A stretch of 64,000 bases of DNA from Gemmatimonadota bacterium (lineage in GTDB: Bacteria; Gemmatimonadota; Gemmatimonadetes; Gemmatimonadales; GWC2-71-9): assembly GCA_039586365.1 (NCBI GenBank), contig JBDHKN010000006.1, positions 64,001 through 128,000 of the forward strand. Reading direction: 5' to 3'. Below, piece after piece: positions 4,811 to 32,009 of the stretch (position 1 is the first letter of the stretch; each line of letters begins with the position of its first letter). The translations under genes were made by a program, and so were the position numbers. The notes under the pieces are model-generated. The model was given only the letters and a program-made list of their open reading frames with translations. It did not search any database and had not been told where the DNA came from.

Positions 4811-6430
4811 CTAATGCATCTCCCACTCGATGAACCCAGGTTCCACATCAGTCATGCAGTTCACAATCAACTCAACCAGGCCGTCATAGAGAATGGAGTG
4901 TTTCTCCCATAGGTCGTAGTAGTTGAACAGGTCGCGCAACTGACCTTTACAGTTCGAGCATGGTGCACAAACGTATTTCTGAATTGACGGATCGAGCTCG
5001 TCCTTGAAGGCATTCAGGATCTGCTCCATCTTCTTGCGGCCGCTGACCTGGGCCCGCCAATCAGCGAAGTTGTGGCCCGACATGATCGCAAATCCACTGC
5101 CCCCTCCGCAGCAATAATTGTCCACGCCGTGGGGCGTCATCTCCCTGAACCGCGGAGCGATCTTCCTGATGACACGTCGCTGTGGCTCAACTATACCCAT
5201 CAGCCTGACAACGTTGCACGGATCGTGCAAGGTGACGGGGAAATCGTTGCGCAACGGATCGACCTTGACCCTCCCAGAAGAAACGAGATTCTCCAGTGTC
5301 ACGAAACAGCTTTCCCGTGGGATGTTGAGGTCGCCGGTCAACACGCGGTCAGCGATTACCGTGAGGGCTTTGTGGGCGTGTCCACACTCCCCGAGCACGA
5401 TCTTCTTTACTCCGAGCTTCTTGGCGATCTGAGCATGCTGGATGGCGACACGGGCAAACTGAGCGTCGTCATACCAAACACCATAGTTGACGCTGTCGTA
5501 ACCAGCAAGTTCGCTCGACATGGTCCAGTTCAAGCCAGCTGACTCGAATATTACTGCAAACGCCCCGGGATTCATGGGCCAAGACAGGATTTCGCCGGCG
5601 TTGTGGATCAGCAGTATGTCGGCGCCCTCCTTGTCCCACGGAGTCTCGATCGTCAAGCCCGTTTTCTCAGAGACGTCCTCATCTATGAACTCCATATTGT
5701 CCTTGACCACGATGGCGTTCATACCCGTAGAAGATCCGACCTTGAGTTGCTGGACGGAGCCGGCCTCGTGCAGTTCTTTGGGGGCTATACCCATCTCCAT
5801 GCTGAAGACCTTGCGGATCTCGTGTGCGATCAATGCATTGTCGACGCCGATCGGGCAGGTCTGGGCACAACGCCGGCATAGGTTGCAGCGATAGGCTAGC
5901 TCTGCCAGACGAGCAACCGTGGTCCAGTTCAGCTCTATCTCTCCGTCCTGCCAGGCCTGAAGCATTCCGCCATTTCCCTTGTGCTTGACGTGTTTCTTGT
6001 ACAAGCGGCGAAAAACCTCTGAGCGATAGGCAGGTCGATAGACAGGATTGTTCCCGCTTGCCTCATAGATGTGACATGCATCCGAGCAAGTGTGGCAGGT
6101 GGCACAGTGCTCCATCGACATCAGGAGCGGCTGCAGGAAAGTCCAGTTGTTCTCCTTGGTGAACAGCTTCTGCAGTCCAGAGAGGAACTGCGCAACCAGC
6201 TTGTCCTCCTCTTCTTTGGTCTTGGGCTTCGGGATGCTGACGGCAATCGTGTCGTCCATTGAGGACTCGTATGTCTCCTCAGCCTTTTCGCTCAAGGGCT
6301 TGAAGTCCGGCGTAGCCTCAGGAGTCTGGAATGGTTCTGGGAGAGGCTTGAAATCCTCTTTTCTCAGCTCGGTCAGCTTCGCCGACGGCTTGGATATATC
6401 TTCGATTCTTACCCGCTTCCTCGTTTGCAT
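4811..6430 (-). CDS. DsrK/HdrD-like Fe-S oxidoreductase (two 4Fe-4S motifs + CCG domain), module 1
   Basis: CATCHTCSDAC, CNLCRRCAQTCP, GECGH, HDPC, CCGGGSG, CSNC; start at ATG 6430 after GAGGAG. Confidence 0.88.
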   Translation of the reverse strand: MQTRKRVRIEDISKPSAKLTELRKEDFKPLPEPFQTPEATPDFKPLSEKAEETYESSMDDTIAVSIPKPKTKEEEDKLVAQFLSGLQKLFTKENNWTFLQPLLMSMEHCATCHTCSDACHIYEASGNNPVYRPAYRSEVFRRLYKKHVKHKGNGGMLQAWQDGEIELNWTTVARLAELAYRCNLCRRCAQTCPIGVDNALIAHEIRKVFSMEMGIAPKELHEAGSVQQLKVGSSTGMNAIVVKDNMEFIDEDVSEKTGLTIETPWDKEGADILLIHNAGEILSWPMNPGAFAVIFESAGLNWTMSSELAGYDSVNYGVWYDDAQFARVAIQHAQIAKKLGVKKIVLGECGHAHKALTVIADRVLTGDLNIPRESCFVTLENLVSSGRVKVDPLRNDFPVTLHDPCNVVRLMGIVEPQRRVIRKIAPRFREMTPHGVDNYCCGGGSGFAIMSGHNFADWRAQVSGRKKMEQILNAFKDELDPSIQKYVCAPCSNCKGQLRDLFNYYDLWEKHSILYDGLVELIVNCMTDVEPGFIEWEMH

Positions 6431-6432
6431 GC

Positions 6433-7368
6433 CTAGTTCTCCTCGACACCGGAGGTTGCCACGTCGACCCAATTCTTCTTTCCGTCCCCTCGAATGTGGG
6501 GCGCTGACCAACTCACCGGATACTGCAAGGCCTCGGACACCTTACGTTCGATCTTTCCGCCTTTGAAGCTCGGCTCGTCACTCCACCTGATATCATGCCA
6601 CATGAAGTACTTGGTAAAGAAATGCGACATATGAGTGAGAGGGATGTAAGCCACCAGGAGACAGCCCAGCACAATCTCGAGTGCAACCAAGACTGACGGG
6701 GCGTCGAGGCTCGAAAGGTTGAACGTCACGAGCTGGGTGAAGAACGCCCTGAGACCAGAGAAAGTCGGATCTACGGTAGCGTGCGCTAACAAGGCCACGG
6801 CCAACGTCACGATGAAGAAGGCAAGATTGAAGAAATCGGAGTGCTTGGTGTACTCGCGGTAGTCCGCATTGAAGGTTCGTCGCACGAGAAGTGCAACGGA
6901 ACCCACCAGACCAAGGCCCAATCCCACATACCCAACCAAGTAGGTCAGGTGGTAGACGGTCCGTCCCAGCACTCCTCCATCGGCTGAGATGTCCATGCCA
7001 GCGGCACCGGCAATCCCTCCCAAAACCAACAAGCCAACCAGACCACCGAGCAGGTACAAACCGAAATGGAACGGAAACGAGCGGAGCCATTGTTGCAGGT
7101 TGTGTTCGCGAACGCCGGCAAGCAATAGAATTTCGGGAACCATGAACTTCAGTTCGCCAAGCATGGATGACTCACGTGGCTTGGTCCACCAATCAGATTC
7201 CTCGAGGTACGAACCACCGTAGCTTGCCCGACCCTTCTCGTGAGCGACAGGGTAGAGCTCCCAACGCAAGTGAATGGGCAACCGGACAATCTTCACGCCG
7301 CGCCAGACGACTGCCGCGACAAACACGGCAACTGCAGCGTACGGCAGAATGAGCAGCATTAAACCCAC
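6433..7368 (-). CDS. DsrM/NarI-like membrane b-type cytochrome, module 1
   Basis: LRWELYPVAHE...YGGSYLEE..WW, FPFHFG, YIPLTHMSH; multiple TM helices; adjacent to DsrK-like gene. Confidence 0.85.
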   Translation of the reverse strand: MGLMLLILPYAAVAVFVAAVVWRGVKIVRLPIHLRWELYPVAHEKGRASYGGSYLEESDWWTKPRESSMLGELKFMVPEILLLAGVREHNLQQWLRSFPFHFGLYLLGGLVGLLVLGGIAGAAGMDISADGGVLGRTVYHLTYLVGYVGLGLGLVGSVALLVRRTFNADYREYTKHSDFFNLAFFIVTLAVALLAHATVDPTFSGLRAFFTQLVTFNLSSLDAPSVLVALEIVLGCLLVAYIPLTHMSHFFTKYFMWHDIRWSDEPSFKGGKIERKVSEALQYPVSWSAPHIRGDGKKNWVDVATSGVEEN

Positions 7369-7370
7369 CT

Positions 7371-7913
7371 TCAGTCCTCCGTTCGGGACCGCCTCTTGCG
7401 GTCCATGAGTTCTCTGATAGCACCGCTAGTATCAGCGGAATCGGTCTGGTCGTGCACGAGACTCTTGATCTCTTCGGTGCACAATGAGCCGAACCGGTAA
7501 ACCACGCACCTGCGGCACTCGTTCCCCTGAGGAGCGCAGTTGAGTCCCTTGATCATCCAGCATGGTCGGGTGGTCTCCTTGTACGCGGGACAGCTCTCGC
7601 GAGTCTCAGCCTTGCAGGGCAGCAAGTCCCAACACGGGAGCAGCGCTTGCATCCTGCGGATCGCTTCGACATTGAGACCGGAGTTCTGGATCAGGTGGTG
7701 GACGTTATTCACTCGGCTGATGTCTTCGTGCGAGAAGAGACGATGCTTGGAGGCGGTCCGGTGGGCGATTATGAGACCTTCATTCTCGTACTTTCGGACA
7801 GCAGAGACGGAGAGGCCCACCTTCTGCGCCAAGACCCCGATTGAGATTACGGGGTCCTCGATCTGTGGTGGATCTATTTCGCTAGGCGTTTGCCCGTCGT
7901 AGTCGTATCCCAT
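7371..7913 (-). CDS. MerR-family regulator with Cys-rich C-terminal domain containing two CW motifs
   Basis: ISIGVLAQKVGLSVSAVRKYENEGLI...HRLFS HTH; PCWDLLPC...CPAY...PCW...C...CRRC. Confidence 0.85.
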   Translation of the reverse strand: MGYDYDGQTPSEIDPPQIEDPVISIGVLAQKVGLSVSAVRKYENEGLIIAHRTASKHRLFSHEDISRVNNVHHLIQNSGLNVEAIRRMQALLPCWDLLPCKAETRESCPAYKETTRPCWMIKGLNCAPQGNECRRCVVYRFGSLCTEEIKSLVHDQTDSADTSGAIRELMDRKRRSRTED

Positions 7914-8217
7914 CAGGCAGACCGCTCCATAGAAGGAAATCTATTATCTACAGTGCAGGAAATCTGTACGGTAGAATTAAGTTTTCTTTAGGCCGCGTAC
8001 TGACTGGTGGGTGTAGGGGCAGCGGGACTCGTTGATCGAACGATCGTTCGCCATCAACGGTCGGCTCAATCGTCTCGGCGAAGTGACTCGTTACGACTCG
8101 TGACGGCGCAGTCTCTCGTCCATATAGCGCTGCACGGGACTGTAGTCGAGATATCCTGTGGTCAAGATCATAAAAGAAATTGTTGACGTGCTAGCCTGCT
8201 GCACCTCAAAAGACCAA

Positions 8218-8247
8218 TCGGTCTTCGCCTGGCGTGGCGAAGACCGA
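8218..8247 (-). terminator. Probable terminator of the 13.3-8.3 kb operon
   Basis: 12-bp inverted repeat TCGGTCTTCGCC/GGCGAAGACCGA followed on the - strand by TTGGTCTTTT. Confidence 0.6.
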
Positions 8248-8288
8248 CTCACTCACTCTGTTGAGCAGCAGAGGACCCCCGAGCTGGC

Positions 8289-8681
8289 CTAGGCGAGCAA
8301 CTCAGTGACCATGTCGACCAATTTCTGATGGTCCACGGGCTTGCTGATGTAGCCCTCAGGCGGAGGTACCTGACGTCGGGAAGAGATGAACTTCTCGAAC
8401 TCGTCCGAGATGCCGGTGATGATAATGACGGGGATGCTCTTCAGATGATCGTCCTGTTTCAGCCTGCGGTAGACTGCAACCCCCGACTTCTCAGGCATGG
8501 TGATATCCAATGCGACCAAGTCCGGTGCTGCCTGTTCGATCATAGCAATCGCTTCAGCCCCATCGTTGGCCGTGGCAGTGACAAACCCGTGGTCTTGCAG
8601 GACGGTGGTTAGGAATTCGCGTGCATCGGGATCATCATCTACTACCAAGACGGTCTTCGCGTCGTCAGGCATGTGGCCCAT
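8289..8681 (-). CDS. Stand-alone response regulator receiver
   Basis: VLVVDDD, PDLVALDITMP, IITG, SKP; no output domain. Confidence 0.92.
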   Translation of the reverse strand: MGHMPDDAKTVLVVDDDPDAREFLTTVLQDHGFVTATANDGAEAIAMIEQAAPDLVALDITMPEKSGVAVYRRLKQDDHLKSIPVIIITGISDEFEKFISSRRQVPPPEGYISKPVDHQKLVDMVTELLA

Positions 8682-10119
8682 CCTTTTCGGTCAGATCAGA
8701 ACTGTCCGGCTCATGCTGCGTCGGTCGCACCCTAGGTAGTTTTACGACAAACTTCGTCCCGACGCCAGGTTGGGACTCCAATTCGATGGTTCCTCCATGG
8801 GCCTGCGCGATGCGGTCGGAGATGAACAACCCCAGCCCGGTGCCCGTTCCCTTCGAGGAGAAGAACAGAGTGAAAGCCCGCTCCTGCGTCTCTTGATCCA
8901 TCCCGATCCCATTGTCCTCGATCTCGTACCTGATGTGGTCCGCTAATCCTTGTAGCCTCACCACTACCTGAGGGGTCGCCTGCTTATCGTCCAACCTGCA
9001 TGCATCCAGCGAGTTCTCGATCAGATTCACCAGCAGGGAACGAACGGCTTGGGCGTCCGCCTCGAACTCGCCGGCTGATTGATCGACCGACGTGATCAGC
9101 TGTACCTGGAGATCCTTGGCTCGAGATTCCATCAGACCGCAGACCTCTTCTGCAACCAGCGGAGCTGAAAGTGGTTCCCAATTGGGCACTCTATCCTTCG
9201 CGTAGTAAAGGATGTCTGACACCATGCTGCGGATCCTGGCCACGTTCCGATTGACCGTCGCCCAACCCTTCTTCACTCGTTCTTCGTTGCCCTTCGTAAA
9301 ACCGGAGTCGACCAAATACATGCCACCGGCCAATCCGTTGAGGAGACCCTTGAGACCGTGAGATACTGAGCCGATCAACAACCCAAGCTGAGTCAAGCGG
9401 TCCTCCAACTCCCGAACATCGGTTATGTCGGCGCTCATCTCCATCACACCTGTCGTGCCACCCTCTCCGTCGGGAATCGGTGCAGTCGTAACGAGCACGT
9501 TCCTGTGCTTACCGTCCAGCGACGTGACCACCTCCTCCCTGGTGTGGGGTTGGCCGTCATCGAGAGTTTCCTGGACGGGGCACAGTGCACACGGTTCGCT
9601 GCGATGCTTGTACGCCTGGTAACATTTGCGGCCAAGACCGTTGCCGAAGTTCTCCTGGAAGGCGCGATTGGCATCGACGATGTTCAGGTCAGGATCCTGA
9701 ATCGTGATGTAGCAGGGCACTTCGTCAAACAGCGTGTGATAACGGCGTTGGCTCCGGCGCAGCAACTTCTCCATGTTCGTGTGGTGGGTGATGTCGGTAG
9801 ACATCTCCATCACCGTGGTGATCTTGCCCGCCTCGTCGCGAATGGGGGTGGTTTGTACCATGACCGAGAGTTCGTCTCCATCCAGCGTGCGGATCTGCTC
9901 TTCGCTCTCGTGCCGCTCACCGTCACGAAAGGTCCGCGCCACAGGACACACCTCACACCTCTCGGAGCGCTTCTTGTAAACCTGATAGCAATAGCGTCCT
10001 TCGAAGTCGCCGAAGTCCTTCCGGAACCGCTGGTTAGCGTCGACGATCCGGAATTCTCGATCCTGAACCGTGAGGTAACACGGCATAGCCTCGAAGTAAT
10101 GTCGATACTGAGAGTCCAT
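8665..10119 (-). CDS. Soluble PAS-PAS sensor histidine kinase
   Basis: Two similar PAS repeats each with C-x10-C-x2-C; H-box SHGLK; NLIENSLDA, DNGIG, FFSSK, GTGLGL. Confidence 0.92.
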   Translation of the reverse strand: MDSQYRHYFEAMPCYLTVQDREFRIVDANQRFRKDFGDFEGRYCYQVYKKRSERCEVCPVARTFRDGERHESEEQIRTLDGDELSVMVQTTPIRDEAGKITTVMEMSTDITHHTNMEKLLRRSQRRYHTLFDEVPCYITIQDPDLNIVDANRAFQENFGNGLGRKCYQAYKHRSEPCALCPVQETLDDGQPHTREEVVTSLDGKHRNVLVTTAPIPDGEGGTTGVMEMSADITDVRELEDRLTQLGLLIGSVSHGLKGLLNGLAGGMYLVDSGFTKGNEERVKKGWATVNRNVARIRSMVSDILYYAKDRVPNWEPLSAPLVAEEVCGLMESRAKDLQVQLITSVDQSAGEFEADAQAVRSLLVNLIENSLDACRLDDKQATPQVVVRLQGLADHIRYEIEDNGIGMDQETQERAFTLFFSSKGTGTGLGLFISDRIAQAHGGTIELESQPGVGTKFVVKLPRVRPTQHEPDSSDLTEKDGPHA

Positions 10120-10227: not shown

Positions 10228-11994
10228 CTACACCTTCTTGCTTTCGTGGGCCAACTCGAGAACCTTCCGCACGTTGAGTAAGAGCCTCTCTTCGTCCACG
10301 GGCTTGTCCAAGTAGCCCTCGGGTCGCCTGACCGAGCGGTCGTATATGAGCCTACGTAGTTCGGGCCTGCCTGTAATGATGCAGATCTTGAGATCCTCGA
10401 GTTCGGGATCCTTCCGTAGGATCTCGAAGACCTCACCCACGTCCCGACCAGGCATATGCAGGTCGAGCGTCAATAGATCTGGTTTCTCCCGCCGCGACAG
10501 TTCCAGGGCCTCGTCGCCGCTCATGGCCCTGAACACGGTTGCGCCGTTGTCCTCTAGCACGGTGGCGAGAAACTCCACCTGATCGGGCTCGTCATCGGCA
10601 ACCACCAAGGTCCGACCCGCCAGCGGAAGTCCCTCGACTACGGCCGGCTCTGCAGCGATCGGCTCTGCAACAGGCACGGCTACCTTCTCCTCGATCACCA
10701 GCGCGTTGGCCACCAGGTTGACCAGCTGTGTCACCTCCATGCCGAGTTCGTAGTGGCGTATCACGTCGGTGAGCCCGTCCACGCAATTGTGGCAAGACGT
10801 TACGACCGCTTGAGCACCGGTGTCCTTGAGTTGGTTTGCCTTGACAATGGCTGACTTGAGCCGTTGCGGCGTGTACTCAGACATGGACATAGCACCGCCG
10901 CCACCGGTACAGCAGTAGTTCTCGGTCCGGTTCGGGTACATCTCGCGAAAGTCCTCACATACTAGCTGTAGCAGCTCACGCGGTTCCTCGAACAGGCCGC
11001 AGCTCCGAGCGTTGTTGCAGGAGTCATGAAAAGTGACCGGCTTGGTGTTGCGGCTCTTGTCCACCTTGATCCGACCCTCCTTGATGTAGCGGAGCATAGT
11101 GAGGACAGAACTCTCCATCTCGAACGGCACATCGAACTTGGCCCAATTGGGGCCCTCGCAGCGAGTGGATCGGTAGCCGTGGCCACATTCAGAGATGACG
11201 AGCCTTTTGCCGCGAAATTCCTCGACCTTCTCATACAGGCGCTGGGCAACCGACCCGCCCAAGGCGTCGTCGCCCGAAAAAAGGCCGAAGTTGGTCATGT
11301 CCCAGCCTTCACTCGGCATGGTCCAATTCTCACCCGCTGCATGGAAAATCTTGGCCGCGTCCGCGATGCTGCGCGGGTCGTATTTCACCTCGCGTGGATT
11401 GATGGAATAGACAACCTCGCAGTCCATCTGATCGATCGGTATGGCAACCGAAGGATCATCCAGTTCGTCCTGCAGCTCTTCCTCCATCCACTCGAGCGTC
11501 TCGAGATAATCTTCCTTGAGAACGCCCATCTGATTCCCGATCTCCCATTGGTCCTTGCTGACCACTGCCACACCCTCTGGCATGATCCCGACTGAGACTA
11601 GGAGGCCTCTTGCCATCCGGTTGAACGTGGCGAAATCGACACCCATGGGGCAGTTGATCGAGCAACGCCGGCAGTTGGTGCACTTGCCGAACACGATGTC
11701 CTTGAGTTCTTCCAGCTCTTCATCCGTGTAGACGCTCCCGGCCTTCACCCACCAGGGGACGACCCGGCCGGTCCAGTCGAAGTGCTTCTTGAACAGCTTA
11801 CGAATCCTGTCCGCCTTGTAGGGTGGTGCGTAGGTCGGGTCGCCGGGATTCGCCAACACGTAGTGGCAACAGTCGATGCACATTCCGCAGTGCACGCAGG
11901 CTATCATCGATCCGGCTATCTGACGGTTGAGCTTTTGGCCCATCCGCTCTATGACCTTCTCGGCCTTATGAGATCTCGTTCTTGTCTGGCTCAT
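10228..11994 (-). CDS. HmcF/TmcB/DsrK-like Fe-S oxidoreductase fused to a C-terminal receiver domain, module 2
   Basis: CVHCGMCIDCC, CTNCRRCSINCP, ECGH, HDSC, CCTGGGG, CHNC; Ala/Pro/Glu linker; then VVADDE...LTLDLHMP...ITG...DKP. Confidence 0.9.
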   Translation of the reverse strand: MSQTRTRSHKAEKVIERMGQKLNRQIAGSMIACVHCGMCIDCCHYVLANPGDPTYAPPYKADRIRKLFKKHFDWTGRVVPWWVKAGSVYTDEELEELKDIVFGKCTNCRRCSINCPMGVDFATFNRMARGLLVSVGIMPEGVAVVSKDQWEIGNQMGVLKEDYLETLEWMEEELQDELDDPSVAIPIDQMDCEVVYSINPREVKYDPRSIADAAKIFHAAGENWTMPSEGWDMTNFGLFSGDDALGGSVAQRLYEKVEEFRGKRLVISECGHGYRSTRCEGPNWAKFDVPFEMESSVLTMLRYIKEGRIKVDKSRNTKPVTFHDSCNNARSCGLFEEPRELLQLVCEDFREMYPNRTENYCCTGGGGAMSMSEYTPQRLKSAIVKANQLKDTGAQAVVTSCHNCVDGLTDVIRHYELGMEVTQLVNLVANALVIEEKVAVPVAEPIAAEPAVVEGLPLAGRTLVVADDEPDQVEFLATVLEDNGATVFRAMSGDEALELSRREKPDLLTLDLHMPGRDVGEVFEILRKDPELEDLKICIITGRPELRRLIYDRSVRRPEGYLDKPVDEERLLLNVRKVLELAHESKKV

Positions 11995-12030: not shown

Positions 12031-12702
12031 CTATCCGTGCTGGAGCGGATAGACACCCCGGTAGCCCATGCTCTTACCGAAGTAGTAGCGTGTGAAGGGG
12101 TAGTAGAGATAGTGAGAGATCTTGCTGAACGGAACGTACACCAGGAAAAACGCCGTCAGTATGAAGTAAGTTACCAGATGCCACTCCCCGTTTGCGGTGG
12201 AGTTGGGCACGGCCAGGACTGCGAAGAAGAACCACACCGTCAGCAATGTCAGCGAGAAGTAGTCGTCCGGGGAGCTGATGGCCCTCATGTAAGGGTTGGT
12301 CACCCTCCGGATCATCCGCACAACCCCGACCAGACAAGCGGCTCCTATCACCAATTGCAGCAGTACTGTAACCGTGGAGCTCTGCAGCAGACCCGCGCTG
12401 TACGGAATGATGAACGACAACGCGATCGCAGCCGTGACCCCGAGATGGAAGATTGCGAACTGTACATACATGAGCGGCTTGGACCTGGTGCTCTCCATCG
12501 CCCAAGGCATAGCAATGTTGGCCCATGAGTAGAGGATTCCCTTTGCCTTAGTGGTGTTCAGTCTTCCGGTTGGCGCTTGGCGCTCTGTTCCTGCCTTGAA
12601 ACGTCGCAGGAACCAGGTGATGCGCATGACATAGACCAGAGCCATGAACCCCAGGGCAACTTCCTGGAGAGTGTGCTCCGCAAAGTGTAACAGGTCGCTC
12701 AT
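12031..12702 (-). CDS. NarI/HmcE-like membrane anchor, module 2
   Basis: About 5 TM helices; FHLG, RRVTNPYMRAISSPDDY, YVPFSKISH. Confidence 0.82.
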   Translation of the reverse strand: MSDLLHFAEHTLQEVALGFMALVYVMRITWFLRRFKAGTERQAPTGRLNTTKAKGILYSWANIAMPWAMESTRSKPLMYVQFAIFHLGVTAAIALSFIIPYSAGLLQSSTVTVLLQLVIGAACLVGVVRMIRRVTNPYMRAISSPDDYFSLTLLTVWFFFAVLAVPNSTANGEWHLVTYFILTAFFLVYVPFSKISHYLYYPFTRYYFGKSMGYRGVYPLQHG

Positions 12703-12717: not shown

Positions 12718-13260
12718 TTAATCCAAGGCCGCCAGTGCAGCCTTGAAGGAGTTGTATTGCGGCGTGTCCAAAACACAGATGACAATTTCTTTGATGCTGC
12801 ATTCGCCGGCCAGGCGGTTCTTGAACACGTCCATCATCACTCGGGCGCTGACTTCAGGCAAAATCCCGTAGTAGCCCGCTCCCATAGCCGGGAAGGCGAT
12901 CTGCTCGATGCCCTTTTCTTCGGCCCGTTTCAGGCAGTTGAGGACGGTGGTGTATAGTTTCGTCTCCGTGTCTTGTTCTTGGAACCGCGGTCCCACGGCG
13001 TGAATGATGTGCTGAGCCTTGAGATTTCCAGCGGCCGAGACCACGGCCTCACCGGTCGCTACCGGTGCCAGCTGCTCGAGTTCCTTTTGAATAGTGGGTC
13101 CACCCCTCACTGCGATAGCCCCGCCAAAACCCGAACCCAAGGTCAAATCAGGCTGGGCGTAGAAGACAAAGGCTTCGATGTCCAGGTCGGTGATGTCGTA
13201 CTTGATGAGGCGGATGGTGGTGCGGTTGATTCGGATGCCGTCTGACACTGCCTGGGTCAT
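12718..13260 (-). CDS. Macrodomain (ADP-ribose-binding fold) protein with degenerate catalytic motif
   Basis: DIT, GFGGAI..RGG, AGNLKA.HIIHAVGP, IAFPAMGAGYYG; ATG 13260 preceded by AGGAGAGG. Confidence 0.88.
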   Translation of the reverse strand: MTQAVSDGIRINRTTIRLIKYDITDLDIEAFVFYAQPDLTLGSGFGGAIAVRGGPTIQKELEQLAPVATGEAVVSAAGNLKAQHIIHAVGPRFQEQDTETKLYTTVLNCLKRAEEKGIEQIAFPAMGAGYYGILPEVSARVMMDVFKNRLAGECSIKEIVICVLDTPQYNSFKAALAALD

Positions 13261-13498: not shown

Positions 13499-13514
13499 TG
13501 GCACATTGGTTGCC
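13499..13514 (+). promoter_or_regulatory. Sigma54 (-24/-12)-like motif
   Basis: TGGCACATTGGTTGCC matches TGGCAC-N5-TTGC; lies in a ~600-bp divergent intergenic region. Confidence 0.4.
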
Positions 13515-16369: not shown

Positions 16370-16807
16370 TCAGCTGGAGACAGACTCGAATCCCTGAGTT
16401 GCATAGACCATAGCACGGTCAAAGAAGAGAACGACGTGGTTACTCAGCTCCAGGGCCTGATTCAAGTCCAGAGCCGTATCCAGGAAGCCCTCCGACAGGA
16501 CCTTGGACCACAATACTCGCCTGGTGATAATGAGAGCCTGAAGCAACTCTGAGAGTCTGAAACCCTCCTTGTGCCGCCGTTCTCCCAGTGCTGTGTAAAT
16601 GTCTCTTATCTCTTCCTTGGTGGTTTCGGAGGAGACCCATCTGCCAAGCTGGCTGTATACACTGTATGCACGCTCGTACAGCTCGCCTTCGTCGTATGTG
16701 TGGTAGGTTGGCGTGCTTTCGTGGGTGCGGACGATCTCCATCCATCTGCGGGTAAGCGGGTCAGCATTGCGCTGAATGAGATCCACGAGCTTGTTTGATA
16801 GGACCAT
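16370..16807 (-). CDS. All-helical RsbRD-N/HisK-N-like stand-alone domain protein
   Basis: LVDLIQRNA..LT..W, LGERR..EGF.LSELLQAL, FFDRA; ATG 16807 after AGGAGG. Confidence 0.55.
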   Translation of the reverse strand: MVLSNKLVDLIQRNADPLTRRWMEIVRTHESTPTYHTYDEGELYERAYSVYSQLGRWVSSETTKEEIRDIYTALGERRHKEGFRLSELLQALIITRRVLWSKVLSEGFLDTALDLNQALELSNHVVLFFDRAMVYATQGFESVSS

Positions 16808-16911
16808 TGATCCGACCTCCTTCCCACAGAGAACTCGGTCAACCGCTGTAAACGCTGCATATATCGTATCTGGGTTCGCAGCGTAGTGCAACGAAGGGCG
16901 CTGGCCGAGTC

Positions 16912-16945
16912 CTAAGAAACAGGGGCCGTGTCAGACGGCCCCTGT
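16912..16945 (-). terminator. Intrinsic terminator of hppA
   Basis: 11-bp stem ACAGGGGCCGT/ACGGCCCCTGT with T-rich tail on the - strand. Confidence 0.75.
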
Positions 16946-17004
16946 GGTGAAATTCCTGTTAGCTGCGCTCGGTCTGTGCCGACCGGCAGGAAACTCAGAC
17001 GCTC

Positions 17005-19083
17005 TCAGAGTGTGAGGAGCGGCGCAATCACCAGGCTCACTACAGCCATGAGCTTGATGAGAATGTTGAGTGAGGGCCCGGCAGTGTCCTTGAACGGGTC
17101 GCCCACGGTGTCTCCTACGACCGCTGCTTTGTGCGGATCGGAGCCTTTGCCACCGAAGTGACCGGCTTCAATGTGTTTCTTGGCGTTGTCCCAGGCACCA
17201 CCCGAGTTGGCCATGAAGAGCGCCATGAGCACGCCGGATGCAGTCACGCCAGCGAGCAGGCCGCCCAGCATCTCGGGCCTGCCTATGAATCCGACGACCA
17301 CAGGTACCAGCACGGCCAACAAGCCGGGCACAATCATTTGCTTGATGGCAGCCGCCGTGGAGATGTCCACGCAGCGGCGGAAATCGGCCTTGGCTTTGCC
17401 CTCCATCAAACCCGGAATGGTCTTGAACTGGTGCCGGACCTCTTCGATCATGGAAAACGCAGCCCTGCCCACGGCGGCCATCGCGAAACTCGAGAACAGG
17501 AACGGCATCGCGGAGCCGAGCAGGATGCCGACCATGACTTTGGGCACCATCACGTCGATGCTCTCCAGGCCCACGGTGGTGGTGAAGGCACTGAACAGGG
17601 CCAGTGCGGTGAGGGCGGCGGAACCTATCGCGAAGCCCTTACCGATTGCGGCGGTAGTGTTCCCCACCGCGTCCAGCTTGTCGGTGCGCGAACGCACCTC
17701 CGGACCCAGTCCGGCCATCTCGGAGATACCGCCTGCGTTGTCTGCGATCGGACCGTATGCGTCGACGGCGAGTTGGATGCCTGTGGTGGACAGCATGCCG
17801 AGGGCCGCGATGGCGATGCCGTACAGACCGGCAGTCTGGAAGGCGATGAGGACTGCGGCGCTGAGCGCGATGATCGGTAATGCGGTGCTCCTCATGCCGA
17901 GTGCTAGACCGGCGATGATGTTAGTGGCCGCGCCGGTCTCCGAAGCCTTGGAGATACGCTGCGCCGGGGAACGGTTTTCCGCGGTGTAGTACTCGGTGAT
18001 CAGACCGATGGCAATACCGCCTGCCAGGCCGGCTATGGCAGCCCAGAAAACGCCGATGGCGCTGTAGTCGCGCCCGGCAAAGGTCCATGTCTCGGGAAGG
18101 ACCATCCTGATCACGAAGAAGGAGACGACCAACATCAGAATTCCGGCGCCGAAGGTGCCAATGTTGAGAGCTGCCTGAGGGTTACCGCCTTCCTTTGTCC
18201 GTACGAAGAAGGTTCCGACGATTGATACAACGATTCCGATGCCGGCCAAGATCAGCGGCAGGAATACGGCGCTGAGCCCGCTGAACCCGTCGTTGGCCAT
18301 GACCGGAATAAAGGTGGCCCCCAGGATCATGGATCCCACGATCGAGCCGACATACGACTCGAACAGATCGGCGCCCATTCCGGCCACGTCACCGACATTG
18401 TCGCCCACATTGTCGGCGATGACGGCGGGATTGCGGGGGTCGTCTTCAGGGATGCCGGCTTCGACTTTGCCCACCAGGTCGGCACCGACGTCAGCAGCTT
18501 TGGTGTAGATCCCGCCGCCCACACGGGCGAACAGCGCGATCGACGAAGCTCCGAGCGAGAATCCCGTCACGACCTGCAGCACCCTGACCCAATCCCATCC
18601 CACGTCTCCGATAAAGAGGTTGCTGTAGACGATCAGGAGTAAGCTGAGACCGATCACAGCGAGGCCTACTACGGACATGCCCATGACGGCGCCGCCGGAG
18701 AAAGCCACACCCAGCGCGCCGTTTAGGCCGTCGCGTGCCTTGCTGGTCGTACGCACATTGGCTTTGGTGGCGATCCTCATGCCAAAGAACCCGGCGAGGG
18801 CCGAGCATGTGGCGCCAAACACGAAGGAGACCCCTATGAGCCAGTGGCTGGTCTCCTGACCCGCATTGCCTGCCGCCAGAAGCACTGCAACAATGACTAC
18901 GAATATCGAGAGGACCTTGTACTCTCTGGCCAGGAAGGCCATGGCCCCCTCATGGATATGGCCGGCGATTTCCTGCATGAGCTCGCTGCCGGCATCCTGC
19001 TTGCCGATCCATGCGGACTTCGCCAACGCGAACAGCAGGGCTAGAACACCCGCTGCCGGAATTAAGTAAAACCAACTCCCCAT
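17005..19083 (-). CDS. hppA: Membrane-integral ion (Na+/H+)-translocating pyrophosphatase, K+-dependent type
   Basis: [34 protein letters not shown] (Ala at the K+-dependence position), [10 protein letters not shown]. Confidence 0.97.
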
Positions 19084-19452
19084 TGCCCACTCCTTTCATG
19101 ACCACACGGGGTGGCTGTCACAACAACTGAGCCATCATTCGGTTTGCGTGAAAATGCTGTCCCCGAAAGGGACGGAGAAATGTGGTTGGAGGACCAGTGG
19201 CTCCATGGCACCCGTGGTGCCAAGACGCCACCGGAACACCGGGGGGAATGCCTCCAACCGTTCTGAAGATGTATCTACCAAGTCTGGACCGTCTGCCAGA
19301 TCTGAGGAATGCCGTGTCTATCAGAGAGCCTGCAAACGTAGGAATATACCCTACTGGACCGGACATTTTGAGGGTCACAAGCCCGATTCGGCGCTGCGAA
19401 TTTCACATTCCGATCTGGCCGAGGTTGCACCCGCCATGCTCGCACTTCGGAC

Positions 19453-20085
19453 CTACCCGAGCCTGTCCAATACCTGGGCTACGACGTCGTCCGGCGTGCC
19501 AGATCCATCGACTGTCACGAGCACGCCGGCCTTCTCATAGTAGTCGGCGATCGGGATTGTCTCACTACGGTAGATGGCTAGACGTTCCTTGATTGCCTCA
19601 GGCTTATCGTCGTCGCGCTGGTACAACTCGCCACCGCACCTGTCGCAGATACCCTCTCGCTTGGGAGGAACGAACTTGAGGTGGAAGATCGTGCTGCAAT
19701 CGCGACACTGACGTCTGCCCGACAGCCGCTCGAGCGAGACCTCCTCAGGTACGTCGATCAGAACCGCCGTGTCGATCTGCGCGATCCCGGATAGTGCCTC
19801 GGCCTGTTTCAGGTTCCGCGGGAATCCATCGAGCATGAAGCCGTTCACGCAGTCATCCTTGGCGGTCCGTTCCTGCACCATTCCACACGTCACGTCGTCG
19901 GGCACCAGCTCACCTCGGTTCATGTACTCTTGAGCCTTCCTGCCAAACTCGGTCCCTTGTTTGAGCGCGTCACGGAACATGTCGCCGGTGGAGATGTGCG
20001 GAACTCCGAATCTATCCTTGATCTTGCCAATAACGGTGCCTTTGCCCGACCCTTGGGGGCCCAGGAATACCATGTTTCTAGCCAT
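19453..20085 (-). CDS. adk: Adenylate kinase with Zn-binding LID
   Basis: GPQGSGKGT, HISTGDMFR, GELVPD, LDGFPR, CRDC...CDRC, QRDDD. Confidence 0.97.
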   Translation of the reverse strand: MARNMVFLGPQGSGKGTVIGKIKDRFGVPHISTGDMFRDALKQGTEFGRKAQEYMNRGELVPDDVTCGMVQERTAKDDCVNGFMLDGFPRNLKQAEALSGIAQIDTAVLIDVPEEVSLERLSGRRQCRDCSTIFHLKFVPPKREGICDRCGGELYQRDDDKPEAIKERLAIYRSETIPIADYYEKAGVLVTVDGSGTPDDVVAQVLDRLG

Positions 20086-24874: not shown

Positions 24875-25285
24875 TCAGACTAGAAGTTCCCTGACTTTCT
24901 CCAGGAACGCGTCTTTGTCGATCGGCTTGGGGAAGAAGCCGTTAGGCGCTGGTACCGAGCGACGACCGCTGATGAATTTCTCGTATCCGTACGGATCACC
25001 AGCGTATCCCTTTACAGCCGTGACGATGACCACCGGTATGGAGGCCAGCTCCGGATCAGTTCTAATCTCCTTGTAGAATCTCGCGCCGGTTGTCTCGGGC
25101 ATCAGAATGTCGAGCGTCACCAGGTCCGGTCTCTCTTGTCGCGCCATCGCGATGCCCTCTTTCCCATCACTTGCAGTGACGGTCGTGTAGCCCGCGTCGC
25201 TCAGCAGCATCTCGAGGTAACTAGCTACGTTTGGCTCGTCTTCTACAATGAGGATCTTCTTGGTGTTGTTTGCAGTTGTACTCAT
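24875..25285 (-). CDS. Stand-alone response regulator receiver
   Basis: ILIVEDE, PDLVTLDILMP, IVTA, PKP; GGAGG before ATG 25285. Confidence 0.92.
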   Translation of the reverse strand: MSTTANNTKKILIVEDEPNVASYLEMLLSDAGYTTVTASDGKEGIAMARQERPDLVTLDILMPETTGARFYKEIRTDPELASIPVVIVTAVKGYAGDPYGYEKFISGRRSVPAPNGFFPKPIDKDAFLEKVRELLV

Positions 25286-25336
25286 AGCGGGCCTCCTTCG
25301 GCCCAGAGTCAATCCAGGTTCGGTATCAAGGGACGC

Positions 25337-25882
25337 CTACCCGGATTCATCGGTTCCCGGTGGCGGTTTCTTCTTCAACATCGCGAGGGCACGACGTAGT
25401 GCGTGCGGATCCGCACCCTGAATCTCCTGTTCCAGTTCCTCTTTGAGGCTAATCCTGTCCGTAGTGTGCACCGTCTCTTCCACCCCCAAGGCCTCCTGGA
25501 CGATTCGTACGTAATCCAGCGGCCTCACCGGTTTTTCTAGGTAGACGCCGGTGCCGGACAATACCTTGCCTTCCATGATGTCTTCCATATCGTGCTGGCC
25601 AAGCTCATCCTGCGCATGTGCAGTAACGATCAGCACTGGAATCCGCGACAGGTCCTTGTCCTTGCGTAGCTCGTACAGCAGCCGGCGTCCACTCTTCCGT
25701 GGCATGACAAGGTCAAGCGAGATGAAGTCGGGCCGCCGCTCCTGAATCAGCTTGAGGGCTTGGTCGCCATCGGAAGCCCTGAGGACGTTGAAACCAGCGT
25801 CTTCGAGAATCTGAGCCAGGTAGGTCTGTACGTTCGGTTCGTCGTCGACTACTAGAACGATCTTGTCCTGGGCTCGTGCCAT
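25337..25882 (-). CDS. Receiver domain protein with short helical C-terminal extension
   Basis: VLVVDDE, PDFISLDLVMP, IVTA, EKP; no recognisable HTH. Confidence 0.9.
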   Translation of the reverse strand: MARAQDKIVLVVDDEPNVQTYLAQILEDAGFNVLRASDGDQALKLIQERRPDFISLDLVMPRKSGRRLLYELRKDKDLSRIPVLIVTAHAQDELGQHDMEDIMEGKVLSGTGVYLEKPVRPLDYVRIVQEALGVEETVHTTDRISLKEELEQEIQGADPHALRRALAMLKKKPPPGTDESG

Positions 25883-25912
25883 GGTATTGCCTCTTCGTAC
25901 ATTTGTCGTCCA

Positions 25913-27022
25913 TCAGTCATGGCGTTCGCCATGCGCGAGTTCCCCTGGTTTGGGCAGCTTGTCGCGCGGCAGCTCGATGCGAAACACGGAGCCCTCACCT
26001 TCCTCAGATCTGAATGAGACCGTGCCGCCGTGCTGGTGCACGGCCTTTCTGGTTGTGAGTAGCCCTAGCCCGACACCCTTGTCGGAGCCCTTGGTAGTAA
26101 CGAACCTCGTGAACACCTTTCTTCTGATTTCGTATTCCATCCCCCGACCATTGTCAGCGACTTCATACACCAGCATGCCGTTGCTTTCTCGTGTCGACAG
26201 TGTCACGACGAACTTCCGGTTCTTGTCAGTCACACCACAGGCATCCAAGGCGTTTGACACCAGGTTGGCTAGGCACGTGTGGATGCCTTCTTCATCCAGA
26301 GGCGCCGGAGGGATACCGTCTTGCAGATCTATCCGCAGTTCGATTCCCAGTTGGGTCGCTCGTTCCCGAAACAGCTCCACGACCTTGCGTGCGGGGTTGT
26401 TAGGGTCGACCAGCGTCACTTGTGCCACACCACCCTTGGCAAAGTCCAGAAATTCCTTTACGAACTCCGAGATCCGAGCGATGTTTTCCTCCAGCATGGT
26501 CCACCCCCGGGCAACACGTTCATCATCTTCCCGCTCTATCCCGGTGTTGACCGCGTAGATGCCCCCTTCCAAGCCCATGAGTACGTTCTTGATGCCATGG
26601 GCGATCCCTGCCACGGTCTCTCCCACGGTAGCCAGCCGCTCAGCTTCGCGTTTCTCGTTTTCCAGTTGTTTCACCAAGGTGATGTCCGTGGACATCTCAA
26701 TGACATAGGGGATTTCACCATCGACGCGAGTGATGGGAATCATCTGCACCAAGTAGTGGCTCTTCCCACCTCTGCTATAGGTCCCCTCCTCCTCGCGGGT
26801 GCGGATCCTTCCGTCAGTGAAGGCCTCCGACGCGGCGCACCGCAAGCAACGATCTGACCGACCTTTGTAGATCTCGAAACACTGACGGCCCTCCCAGGGT
26901 CCGTACTCCTCGCTGAAGCGCCGGTTCGCTCGGACGATATTGAAGTCCTTGTCGATGACACAGATGCCCACTGGTACCTCGTTGAACAGGTTTGCCTTGA
27001 GCCAAGCATCGATCGTCTTCAT
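25913..27022 (-). CDS. Soluble PAS sensor histidine kinase
   Basis: PAS with CFEIYKGRSDRCLRC; H-box AHGIKN; NLVSNALDA, DNGRG, GVGLGL. Confidence 0.92.
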   Translation of the reverse strand: MKTIDAWLKANLFNEVPVGICVIDKDFNIVRANRRFSEEYGPWEGRQCFEIYKGRSDRCLRCAASEAFTDGRIRTREEEGTYSRGGKSHYLVQMIPITRVDGEIPYVIEMSTDITLVKQLENEKREAERLATVGETVAGIAHGIKNVLMGLEGGIYAVNTGIEREDDERVARGWTMLEENIARISEFVKEFLDFAKGGVAQVTLVDPNNPARKVVELFRERATQLGIELRIDLQDGIPPAPLDEEGIHTCLANLVSNALDACGVTDKNRKFVVTLSTRESNGMLVYEVADNGRGMEYEIRRKVFTRFVTTKGSDKGVGLGLLTTRKAVHQHGGTVSFRSEEGEGSVFRIELPRDKLPKPGELAHGERHD

Positions 27023-29004
27023 GACGGATCACGGACCATCGACTGAATGGCTGAAGGCGTATCGCTGTACGCGCGGGACACCTCGGTGCCAGGGGCCATG
27101 CGGCGCAATTCCAGACTGCGGTCCACGTCGTGGCATGTATCGCAACGGTCCAGCGTGGGCGGATGACTTCCTGGATCTTCCGCTAATCGTCGTTCGTGGC
27201 AACTTTCGCACAGACCATGCATCGCGTGCATATAGCCGACGGCTGCCTGCCAGCGGTCCTGTGGTGGCTCGACGAAGGAAGCCACTGCCACCAATTCCTC
27301 GTGGCACTCGGCACAGGGAGCAGCTGTCTCGTAGCTCTTCGCGGCCTCAGGATCCTGATGGCACTCAAGGCATGCAGCGTTGCCTCCTAGCTTCTGTACG
27401 TGAGACATGTGGTTGAAGACCGATGTCGGCTCGTACATGTCACGGTGGCACTCATAGCACGCCGTGTTTCGGTCGTACGGCTTGTTGATGTGGTGACACA
27501 CTGTGCATGAACCTTCGTCTTCCAGGCGCGCTTTGTGTGCTTCGTGATCCAAGAGTACGGGATAGCCGTTTCTATTGCCGTCAATCATCAGGAGCGGCAT
27601 GGTCGCTCCGTCGCTCGGCCCCGTGCCAACATGATCTGGGAGTTCGAGTCTCCTGCCGGGACCACTCTGTCGGGGGACTGCAATACCGTCCACCGTGCGC
27701 GCCGGCGAGACGGGTGTTCTTGCGGGTACCAGGCCCAGTATCGCCTTGTCGGGAAGGAGCAGTACGGCAACCGCCGCCGCGGCAATGGTGATCAAGGAGA
27801 ATCTGCGGGGGGCAACTAGTTTGTGAGGCAGCAGGCCGTGCAGGGTGGCCGGATCAAATGAAGGTCTCGTCACGCGACCGGCATCCGGTTCTGCTTCGTA
27901 GACGTTGAAGCGTTCCACGAAGAAGAGGAAGATCAGGACAGCGCCCGATACGATGCCCAAGCTCACTGCGAACTCCATCCAACTCGGGAAGTACGCCAGA
28001 TCCTCCGGCCGGGCGAACGCCACGATGCAGACGTCGAGCCTGTAGAGTACCATGCCGAGGATTGTCAGTGCCGAACACAGTCCCAGGCCCGCAATGCTGG
28101 ATCGCACTGGCTTCAGCAGTAGGAGGCCAGCCGGGATGACAGCGCTAATCCCGAGTTCGGCAACGAACAGCAGGCTTTGCCAGGAACCGTCCAGGAAAGG
28201 GATCAATACACCGCGGAGGGCCAGATCACCAATGCGTAGTAGGACATACAATCCCAGAACCACCGCAGCTACCTTCCCCAGGCCGGACAATAGCTTTGCG
28301 TGGGTCCTGTGACCGAGGAAGAACGCGGCCAACAGCGACTCCATCACGACCATCATGAGTCCGAGTGCCACAGCCGACACGAAGAAGAGCACATACATGA
28401 TGGGGCTGTACCATAGCGGGTGAAGCCGATACGGTGTGATGAGAAACAGTGATCCGAGTGACGACTGGTGCAGTGTGGAGAGGATGATTCCCGCGATGAC
28501 CAGCGGGATGGTGATCCTCTTCAGAGCCTTGAGCGGCTTGTGCAGCGCCGAGCCTGTGAAGCGTGGGTGTTCCAGTACGACGGGTGCGAATTCCAGGGTG
28601 AGCACCGCCAGGTACAGCATCACGCAGGCCGCCACTTCGAACAGCACGGAGTGGTACTGCCAGTAGATTGCAGGATGCCAGATGTGCCAGGGCACGCCGA
28701 GGTCGTAGAACAGCCCCACCGCCACGGCGATGTATCCGAGGAAAGCAGTGAGGATCGCGGGTCGCACGAAAGGCCTGTACTTCTCGATGCCGAAGATGTA
28801 TACGGTCGCTGCCAGCACGAACCCACCTGCCGCCAGCGCCACTCCGCCCATGACGTCGAATCCTATCCAAAGCCCCCACGGCGCGGCGTCGGACAAGTTG
28901 GTGACAGCGCCGAGGCCATGGATGAAGCGCACCGCAGTGATGGCGGTGAGCACACCAACCAAAGCCCATAGAACTGACTTGAGAGCGTAGAGTCGCTTAT
29001 TCAT
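27019..29004 (-). CDS. NrfD/HybB/HmcC-type membrane protein fused to a six-heme cytochrome c3-like domain
   Basis: TNLSD..PWGLWIGFD, DLG.PW, LSTLHQSSLGSL, HPLW; then CTVCH, CYECH, CLECH, CAECH, CESCH, CDTCH; start taken at ATG 29004. Confidence 0.92.
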   Translation of the reverse strand: MNKRLYALKSVLWALVGVLTAITAVRFIHGLGAVTNLSDAAPWGLWIGFDVMGGVALAAGGFVLAATVYIFGIEKYRPFVRPAILTAFLGYIAVAVGLFYDLGVPWHIWHPAIYWQYHSVLFEVAACVMLYLAVLTLEFAPVVLEHPRFTGSALHKPLKALKRITIPLVIAGIILSTLHQSSLGSLFLITPYRLHPLWYSPIMYVLFFVSAVALGLMMVVMESLLAAFFLGHRTHAKLLSGLGKVAAVVLGLYVLLRIGDLALRGVLIPFLDGSWQSLLFVAELGISAVIPAGLLLLKPVRSSIAGLGLCSALTILGMVLYRLDVCIVAFARPEDLAYFPSWMEFAVSLGIVSGAVLIFLFFVERFNVYEAEPDAGRVTRPSFDPATLHGLLPHKLVAPRRFSLITIAAAAVAVLLLPDKAILGLVPARTPVSPARTVDGIAVPRQSGPGRRLELPDHVGTGPSDGATMPLLMIDGNRNGYPVLLDHEAHKARLEDEGSCTVCHHINKPYDRNTACYECHRDMYEPTSVFNHMSHVQKLGGNAACLECHQDPEAAKSYETAAPCAECHEELVAVASFVEPPQDRWQAAVGYMHAMHGLCESCHERRLAEDPGSHPPTLDRCDTCHDVDRSLELRRMAPGTEVSRAYSDTPSAIQSMVRDPS

Positions 29005-29824
29005 CGCGTCCCTCGCCGTCACCTGCGTCGTCAGTCTTCGCACCGTGGTCTGCGGCGGACGAAACCCCCAAGGCCGTCTGCGAAGCTAGCTTGATCCGCC
29101 GACCGATGATCCAGTAGATCCCGGTCATTAGACCGCCGACCCCAAGCATCAGTGGGGGCACCTTGTGGAGGGCGGCCCAAGTGCGTTCGGGAAGGGGTTG
29201 CGGTCCCAGGTCGGGATGCCAGGCGAGAAAATCGAGCGGAATATCCGAGATGTAGAGCACGGATGTGCCACCGACCTCGTGTTCTCCAAATACCCGTGGG
29301 TAGTATTGCCCGGGATTTGCATCCAGACGGCGATGTGCCTCTTCTAGCAGCTCCGAACGTGACCCAAAAACGGTTGCTTCTTCAGGACATGCCTCCACAC
29401 ACGCTGGAATTCCTCCCTCTCTAATCCTGTGAATGCAGAAAGTGCACTTGCGTACATAGGAAACCCGCTCGTGCCATTCGTACCGCGGGATGCTGTAGGG
29501 ACAGGCAGCCAGACAATAGCGACAGCCCATGCATTTGTCGGGATCGTAGGTAACCGGACCCTCAGGAATCTTCTGCATGGCGCCAACCAGGCACGCGCTC
29601 ACGCAGGCCGGTTCCAGACAGTGGCGGCACTGCTGACGGACGTAGTGCTCGTTCGGGCGCCTGATGATCGTGCAGAAGCGCGTGGACGATAGGTCACTGA
29701 CCGCTGCTTGTCCCCGCCAGGGATGATCACGACCGAGTTCGTTTTCCTCCTTGCAGGCAGCAACACACTTCTCGCAACCAGTACAACGTGTTGTGTCGGT
29801 GAGGATAGCAACGGGTTGCGTCAT
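28997..29824 (-). CDS. HybA/HmcB-like 4x[4Fe-4S] electron-transfer subunit with C-terminal TM anchor
   Basis: CTGCEKCVAAC, CRHCLEPACVSAC, CMGCRYCLAACP, KCTFC...PACVEACP, EVGGTSVLY. Confidence 0.9.
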   Translation of the reverse strand: MTQPVAILTDTTRCTGCEKCVAACKEENELGRDHPWRGQAAVSDLSSTRFCTIIRRPNEHYVRQQCRHCLEPACVSACLVGAMQKIPEGPVTYDPDKCMGCRYCLAACPYSIPRYEWHERVSYVRKCTFCIHRIREGGIPACVEACPEEATVFGSRSELLEEAHRRLDANPGQYYPRVFGEHEVGGTSVLYISDIPLDFLAWHPDLGPQPLPERTWAALHKVPPLMLGVGGLMTGIYWIIGRRIKLASQTALGVSSAADHGAKTDDAGDGEGRDE

Positions 29825-30522
29825 ATTGGTTGCTCCTCTTTTCCGAGCATCGTACCGACCCTGCGGCCGGCATCTGGCGGGAAGTGCCAGGCCAGCTCGG
29901 ATACGAATTGAGTTTCTGGGAGCAGAATCATGTGGCTCAGCTTGGTGAGCGGAATCAAAATCAATAGCACATCGGCGCTCATTGCGTGGATGAAAACCGT
30001 CACATCGTATGGAATGGGATTCAACTGTGGATGGAGGATTAGGAATCCAGATATGAACGGCAGCGCGATCACCACTGGCAATGCGTAGTCCTGGAAGCGG
30101 CTCAGGCTCCTGGAATCACGGGCTGTGGCCCGCTGTATCACGAGGATTGCTGCTGTAACGATAGCCATTATGGTCAGAACGTCTGCGAAGCCGTTGGAAA
30201 TGGCCGGCCAGGACAGGCCCGTGCCCGATTCCCATAGCGCGATGTGGCCTGCCAGGAAGACCGGGACTACGATGATCGAGATATGAAAGACAAGGGTGGT
30301 CAGACTGTAATGGAAGCGCTGTCTGATCTGGCCTAAAGGAAGCAACCACTTGATGGTTGCAATGAGGGCCATCCGATACGGAATAGTCTTGTCACCGGCC
30401 CGGCTCACAATCCTCTTCATCTCCCAGACGGTCATCATTGCATGTCGCAACAGACCCAGCACCATGAACACGAAGGCTGCGCGGAAGAGCGGCCCACGAG
30501 CAAACTCAATCCAGGCTTCCAA
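29821..30522 (-). CDS. HmcE/TmcC-like NarI-family diheme b membrane anchor, module 3
   Basis: FARGPL, FHISIIVVPVFLAGH, IHAMSADVLLILIPLTKLSH (four His). Confidence 0.87.
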   Translation of the reverse strand: MEAWIEFARGPLFRAAFVFMVLGLLRHAMMTVWEMKRIVSRAGDKTIPYRMALIATIKWLLPLGQIRQRFHYSLTTLVFHISIIVVPVFLAGHIALWESGTGLSWPAISNGFADVLTIMAIVTAAILVIQRATARDSRSLSRFQDYALPVVIALPFISGFLILHPQLNPIPYDVTVFIHAMSADVLLILIPLTKLSHMILLPETQFVSELAWHFPPDAGRRVGTMLGKEEQPI

Positions 30523-30534
30523 TCTCTGCTCTCC

Positions 30535-31971: not shown

Positions 31972-32009
31972 TATCTTCTTCTTCCTCTGTGTTTTCCCAT
32001 CGATCGCAA

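Follow-up and report, generated by a model that had tools for sequence, protein, structure and literature searches.

In the 64,000-nucleotide stretch of DNA analyzed here (the window), a gene at 10228..11994 on the minus strand encodes an HmcF/TmcB-related Fer4+CCG oxidoreductase (F1, residues 1 to 435), a linker, and a receiver domain (residues 461 to 580). The first-pass annotation had read this protein as a respiratory subunit gated directly by aspartyl phosphorylation. The locus raises the question of whether the fusion is genuine, which type of enzyme carries the receiver, and on what the receiver acts.

Architecture and distribution of the fusion

The gene is a single, stop-free frame of 588 amino acids, in which Pfam models place Fer4_8 at residues 30-119, one CCG domain at 320-404, and Response_reg at 464-575. 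The enzyme part (10690..11994, minus strand) contains two cubane motifs (C33/36/39/43 and C105/108/111/115), the SECGH cysteine C270, and one five-cysteine CCG site (C326/361/362/401/404), and all these cysteines are invariant in the best 120 homologues (120/120). The CCG motif reads CCTG and is the only complete one in F1; a single CCG motif together with an ECGH cysteine is described for DsrK, HmcF, and TmcB by Barbosa et al. (bioRxiv 2023.08.03.551783). The receiver (10255..10614, minus strand) is DVU0259-like, has a (beta-alpha)5 fold, and scored 56.9 bits against PF00072 (cut-off, 30.2). Residues D467, D468, D511 (the phosphoacceptor, nucleotides 10462-10464), T541, and K564 are likewise invariant in the best 120 homologues, and a set of 70 more diverse fused receivers contained D467, D468, and D511 in 70/70, T or S at position 541 in 70/70, and K564 in 69/70 cases. 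Judged by these residues, the fused receiver looks phosphorylatable. A distant fused receiver, P0209, has Ala at the phosphoacceptor position. The uninterrupted frame with its Fe-S and CCG motifs, the linker, and the intact receiver with acidic pair, Asp, Thr, and Lys, as claimed in the first-pass annotation, were all borne out.

Both domains were modeled with confidence by AlphaFold2 (mean pLDDT, 91.5; full-length pTM, 0.73). The linker (10615..10689, minus strand; about residues 436-460) is flexible, poorly conserved, and variable in length, and it is predicted to be disordered, with pLDDT values below 50 at residues 438-454. Across 60 fused proteins, the tether measured between 53 and 106 residues, and this length, together with the predicted disorder, excludes a rigid coupling of the two domains. 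A complex prediction for enzyme residues 8-436 and receiver residues 457-584 gave a score of 0.00 in two runs, which is uninformative either way.

That the fusion is an assembly artefact or a one-off read-through is next to inconceivable. We found no point in favor of this reading, a contig from run X1 (record 2) bridges the junction without gaps (10361-11279, 2 other letters), and the artefact is ruled out by the fused homologues. One RNA run provided four short pieces, none of which crosses the junction. With the full-length protein as the query, a ranking that favors fused forms, a receiver was present in all of the best 120 matches; with the enzyme part alone, 105 of the best 120 matches had a receiver and 15 were without it, and the fusion was kept down to 49% identity (P0121).

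A relative is encoded by 432 stretches in GTDB, of which the best 80 were kept as loci; two of the six search peptides were drawn from the receiver, so these best 80 of 432 lean toward fused forms. They come from 11 NCBI phyla, led by Gemmatimonadota, Ignavibacteriota, Planctomycetota, Acidobacteriota, and Zixiibacteriota, and the nearest among them (92%) is from Gemmatimonadota. In a sample of 201 Gemmatimonadota genomes, the enzyme was found in 5, dsrA in 7, and both in four. The gene dsrA was detected in 44 of 50 genomes chosen from the best-80 loci (41 over the cut-off). On the contig of the window, aprA, qmo-like genes, sat, dsrC, dsrMKJOP, dsrAB, a dsrD-like gene, dsrL, and dsrN are located just upstream. 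Genome G000 has two copies of aprA (C16:820-2670 and C97:37156-39006). Further genes in the window, at 16370-20085 (minus strand), encode an RsbRD_N protein, which we take to be DsrT-like, and proteins that by inspection are proton-pyrophosphatase-like and adenylate-kinase-like; in close relatives, these genes are again found near the cassette. The literature searched (main texts, with few subscription papers in scope) contains no description of the fusion, and the term "response regulator" does not occur in the main text of the Dsr surveys PMC10591310 and PMC10504309. Public databases label such proteins automatically as Fe-S oxidoreductase/CheY-like. We conclude that the fusion is real, old, widespread in about ten phyla, and apparently unstudied, and that it occurs across many uncultured phyla, in bacteria that carry a sulfite reductase.

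The enzyme and its membrane anchor

The enzyme had initially been called DsrK/HmcF-like. F1 scored below the cut-offs of HmcF (NF045711; 333.4 bits, cut-off 750), TmcB (NF045724; 316.9 bits, cut-off 735), and DsrK (NF045796; 253.2 bits, cut-off 400). All trees were built with FastTree, whose support stars are less reliable, and the enzyme tree contains long branches; in this tree, the fused family had a support of 99 and the branch shared with the HmcF and TmcB references one of 97 (SH-like). The latter clade holds an over-cut-off HmcF and a near-cut-off TmcB and excludes DsrK; F1 is separate in the tree both from over-cut-off DsrK sequences and from the genome's own dsrMKJOP (C97). By score and tree, F1 is thus closer to HmcF/TmcB than to DsrK. 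We rejected the assignment as a true DsrK because F1 is below the cut-off, falls into another clade, and has an anchor without the four heme histidines. F1 would work like a DsrMK/HmcEF module and, by score, is no member of the DsrK, HmcF, or TmcB families.

The HmcEF (with rrf1/rrf2) and TmcBC modules of Desulfovibrio are the best NCBIfam matches of F1, and HmcE and TmcC those of its anchor. In contrast to these systems, the cassette has no genes for the periplasmic cytochrome, HmcB/C/D, or TmcA/D, the receiver is fused, and the anchor lacks both distal-heme histidines. A search for hmcABCD alongside F1 found none, the cassette order being macrodomain-anchor-enzyme-kinase. The DsrMK core of DsrMKJOP, a menadiol:DsrC-trisulfide oxidoreductase, shares with the cassette a NarI-like anchor, a Fer4/CCG subunit, the catalytic cysteines, and the setting in dsrAB genomes; however, DsrM is diheme, whereas the cassette anchor has only two invariant histidines. 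A sister enzyme, P0131, carries a DsrC-like domain fused at the same C-terminal place as the receiver, which, together with the DsrK-type motifs, suggests that the substrate of F1 is a DsrC-family protein. Beside another DsrMK-like pair, G000 encodes several DsrC-like proteins that have a single terminal cysteine or none (C49, C65). The window also harbors a third CCG complex (24875-32103, minus strand), which is Hmc-like and includes an HmcC-multiheme cytochrome fusion, an anchor with four histidines, a Cys-PAS kinase of its own, and two DVU0259-like receivers; the Hmc-like cluster, which includes a separate CCG subunit, spans 27019-32103.

The anchor gene of the cassette (12031..12702, minus strand) encodes a NarI/HmcE-like protein with two invariant histidines, H86 and H197 (76/76), which align with NarI H56 and H205, the residues that presumably hold the proximal heme. 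The positions of NarI H66 and H187 contain no histidine (S in 71/76; position 179 is Y/F in 76/76), and the controls, the genome's own DsrM and a paralogue at 29821-30522, retain all four. H6 and H10 are found in most anchors (65/76 and 66/76, respectively), though they are not invariant, and may for this reason be alternative heme ligands. The anchor is predicted to hold one heme, and its first-and-last-histidine pattern agrees with the proximal-heme pair described in bioRxiv 2026.08.18.745454. In the context of the anchor, the closest solved relative is the one-heme EtfD/EMO of Mycobacterium smegmatis (PDB 9OJN), the top match in sequence (E value, 1.6e-15) and in fold (Foldseek E value, 1.4e-16), at 19% identity; unlike the cassette, it is one polypeptide with two CCG-type clusters and an ETF partner and has no receiver. 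EtfD/EMO is reported to have a single b heme and a menaquinone site (PMC13083937), and electron transfer from one-heme EtfD to menaquinone is described as energetically uncoupled (bioRxiv 2026.08.18.745454). A proximal heme alone would permit menaquinone exchange without energy conservation, and F1 with its predicted one-heme anchor is likely a menaquinone-linked DsrC-type disulfide/trisulfide oxidoreductase.

The partner kinase and the second anchor-enzyme pair

The order macrodomain-anchor-enzyme:receiver-kinase is nearly fixed among the best-80 loci, and in the window a free receiver then follows. The first gene of the cassette (12718..13260, minus strand) encodes a macrodomain protein with an altered motif (FVFYA, GSGFG), in which FVFYA replaces the usual Asn motif; it was found upstream in 71 of the 72 loci that extend far enough, even where the receiver is lost, and is possibly a nucleotide-binding partner of the complex. 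The kinase, HK1 (8665..10119, minus strand), is a soluble PAS-PAS histidine kinase with H254 and intact ATP boxes. Among the 72 of 80 loci that could be assessed (8 end too soon; L057 and L080, at contig ends, were left out), HK1 was the next gene downstream in 67/67 receiver-bearing and 0/5 receiver-less loci; the split loci L044 and L071, which a frameshift and an N gap seem to explain, were counted as receiver-bearing. The five receiver-less loci occupy three places of the FastTree tree and thus represent at least three events, not five. Genomic context supports well that the kinase is tied to the receiver and signals to it, and the idea of a phospho-receiver put forward in the first-pass annotation gains from both the conserved fusion and the adjacent kinase. 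In an individual locus (L077:11826), a kinase is fused to an RR1-type receiver.

Both PAS domains of HK1 contain the cysteine motif C-X10-C-X2-C (60/60), and C136 and C14 are additional conserved cysteines. The published spacings are C-X8-C-X3-C for OrpR and CX2CX11C for NreB; HK1 shares with these Fe-S PAS sensors the three conserved cysteines but differs in the spacing, in having two such domains, and in the extra C136 and C14. A PAS sigma-54 activator encoded in the window (32533-33891, minus strand) has the OrpR Fe-S spacing (C53-X8-C62-X3-C66), and the first PAS cysteine of HK1 aligns with this motif. The PAS cysteines of HK1 may bind an Fe-S cluster and sense redox, and HK1 likely phosphorylates the fused receiver.

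Neither the fused receiver nor the free receiver RR1 has a DNA-binding domain detectable with Pfam. Sense-strand sigma-54 matches were present in 7 of 69 upstream regions, compared to 1.1 in shuffles, with none in the window, and there was no sigma-70 promoter match. A perfect sigma-54 consensus at 13499-13513 (plus strand) points away from the cassette. A sigma-54 activator with a PAS and an unclassified N-terminal domain is encoded upstream of the cassette in L064 (6336-8093) and 14 similar loci.

RR1 (8289..8681, minus strand) is a single-domain receiver whose gene overlaps the kinase stop; it is followed by a terminator-like hairpin (8216..8249, minus strand; a consensus match only), a gene for a MerR-family regulator with a cysteine-rich C-terminus (7371..7913, minus strand) that often travels with M2-K2, and this second pair itself, namely, the NarI-like anchor M2 (6433..7368, minus strand) and the DsrK-like, unfused CCG enzyme K2 (4811..6421, minus strand). 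One distal histidine was missing in 41/41 M2 sequences and the other was kept in 24/41 (Glu in the window); in one recent structure, anchors with three histidines hold a twin heme (bioRxiv 2026.08.18.745454). K2, which co-occurs with the kinase and receivers, was found in 46 of the 50 genomes chosen from the best-80 loci and is absent in G002-G004. In these three genomes, F1 is directly followed by a HEAT gene, and receiver, HK1, and K2 were all not found genome-wide; G003 is 97% complete and shares its contig coordinates with G098, and a single block deletion may account for the loss. G001 and G005 have the receiver as a separate gene next to HK1 and M2-K2, and their F1 is encoded elsewhere without a receiver. 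In the 46 K2-bearing genomes, RR1 is located after HK1 in 31, after K2 in 10, at both places in 1, and at neither in 4; among these four, the G006 sequence breaks off within RR1, and in G037 a weaker receiver is encoded behind K2. Since RR1 sits after HK1 or directly after K2, the simplest reading is likely a single kinase that serves two enzymes through a separate receiver for each, one of which is tethered. HK1 would then also feed RR1, RR1 would serve the paralogous M2-K2, and one sensor would balance two accessory electron routes.

Possible outputs of the fused receiver

Among receiver families, DVU0259 (NF045717) gave the best match to the fused receiver as well as to each of the three free receivers that the window encodes. 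However, the fused receiver scored below its cut-off (67.1 bits; cut-off, 160) and forms a subfamily of its own, which is fused to an enzyme and has its own alpha4 face. The alpha4 face is the output face of receivers. In the fused receiver it reads P-E-x-R-x-L-I-Y (P544-E545-x-R547-x-L549-I550-Y551; 70/70, with E545 in 69/70) and is also found in 4 free copies, whereas 46 RR1 sequences conserve F-I-S-x-R. P0121 has an RR1-type face on its fused receiver and groups apart with weak support, which hints at more than one fusion event. The alpha1 residue D471 is present in 70/70 fused receivers and 45/46 RR1, and the alpha1 specificity residues distinguish only weakly between the receivers of HK1 and those of HK2.

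Receiver-less enzymes arose by 10 changes on a 227-row FastTree tree, 7 of which are forced by starred branches. Eighteen such enzymes showed 6 deviations at 210 invariant columns, compared to 4.3 ± 3.0 in random fused sets; in this low-power comparison of short branches, neither relaxation in general nor a relaxed docking patch was apparent. Free receiver copies nest inside the fused-receiver clade, and detached receivers are kept in at least 3 genomes, some by hydrogenase genes. Two free copies, 60-63% identical to the fused receiver, were found in its own genome (L084:8041-8484 on C118 and L085:8061-8474 on C51), one of them flanked by a membrane hydrogenase-like cluster and by hyp genes, and a Planctomycetota genome has a free receiver and an HK1-like kinase by NiFe-hydrogenase-like genes (L190:5650-7562). 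With a free receiver as the query, a scan of metagenomes yielded chiefly generic receivers. The repeated receiver-less enzymes, the absence of relaxation, and the free copies indicate that the enzyme does without the receiver and that the receiver can live apart. These same fissions and losses, along with the variable linker, would suit an old passenger join of operon neighbors in which receiver and enzyme are independent. We consider this improbable, because the fusion is retained in 105 of the best 120 enzyme matches, across some ten phyla, and at identities as low as 49%, and because P0121 hints, with weak support, at repeated fusion.

The likeliest output is control of the receiver's own enzyme, a reading for and against which we see the chances as evenly balanced. 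The phosphorylated receiver would bind its own complex via the conserved surface and tune it, as an optional, loosely tethered modulator and not as a rigid allosteric gate; whether it turns the complex on or off cannot be told. We give the same even standing to the entire scheme, in which HK1 would phosphorylate the receiver and the receiver, tethered to F1, would modulate its own complex. This would likely amount to post-translational tuning of a predicted one-heme, probably non-energy-conserving electron route.

The receiver phosphorylated by HK1 could alternatively act elsewhere, on M2-K2, a receiver dimer, the macrodomain protein, or a transcription factor, with F1 as a membrane holder. 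Receiver and kinase track K2 (46/50; not found in G002-G004) more closely than they track F1, and K2 is lacking precisely where these two are lacking. After each of the two natural fissions, the receiver remained next to HK1 and M2-K2; the alpha4 face is kept in free copies, and receiver-less F1 shows no relaxation. On the other hand, RR1, which directly follows K2 in 11/46 genomes, accounts just as well for the link between K2 and the kinase; the loss in G002-G004 may be a single deletion, G001 and G005 still have F1, and K2 was fused to a receiver in 0 of the best 120 matches. We therefore regard an action elsewhere as rather unlikely.

Signals might also flow in reverse, the complex reporting the redox state of quinone or DsrC and the tethered receiver serving as a phosphate sink or competitor whose accessibility determines RR1 phosphorylation. 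The two receivers of one kinase with similar alpha1 residues, the soluble kinase, and the several other DsrK-like enzymes in the genome, owing to which F1 need not carry flux, would fit such an arrangement. A pure sink, however, would need no invariant alpha4 face distinct from that of RR1, the enzyme stays fully constrained after receiver and kinase are gone, and the kinase owns cysteine-rich sensor domains, so we hold reverse flow to be unlikely.

Control of the own enzyme by its tethered receiver has partial counterparts. CheB, PleD, and RssB are response regulators with enzyme outputs, and in each an intact receiver is joined to an enzyme; here, in contrast, a long tether links a C-terminal receiver to a membrane subunit of the respiratory type, a combination of which we know no characterized example. 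Unfused counterparts include Rrf1, which we take to be a lone receiver. In Desulfovibrio, regulators follow hmcF, rrf1 being one of them, and in Desulfovibrio hydrothermalis, according to PMC4162548, a CheY-like receiver gene adjoins hmcF and is co-regulated with it. By analogy, these genes show the unfused arrangement in cultured organisms. It is a tentative possibility that one Fe-S redox kinase directly switches two paralogous, one-heme, uncoupled quinol-DsrC valves beside the energy-conserving DsrMKJOP, via the receiver tethered to F1 and the free receiver of K2.

The fusion names a candidate regulator, its kinase, a phosphorylation site (D511), and a predicted conserved binding face, with the natural receiver-less and split variants as ready controls, and a published menadiol:DsrC-trisulfide assay would be applicable. 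If such direct switching proves true, it would represent two-component control that acts on a respiratory complex in the membrane and bypasses transcription, and it would offer a function for the solitary receivers whose genes adjoin hmcF and tmc. It would also bear on how sulfate reducers control electron delivery to DsrC and on why they have several DsrMK-like complexes.
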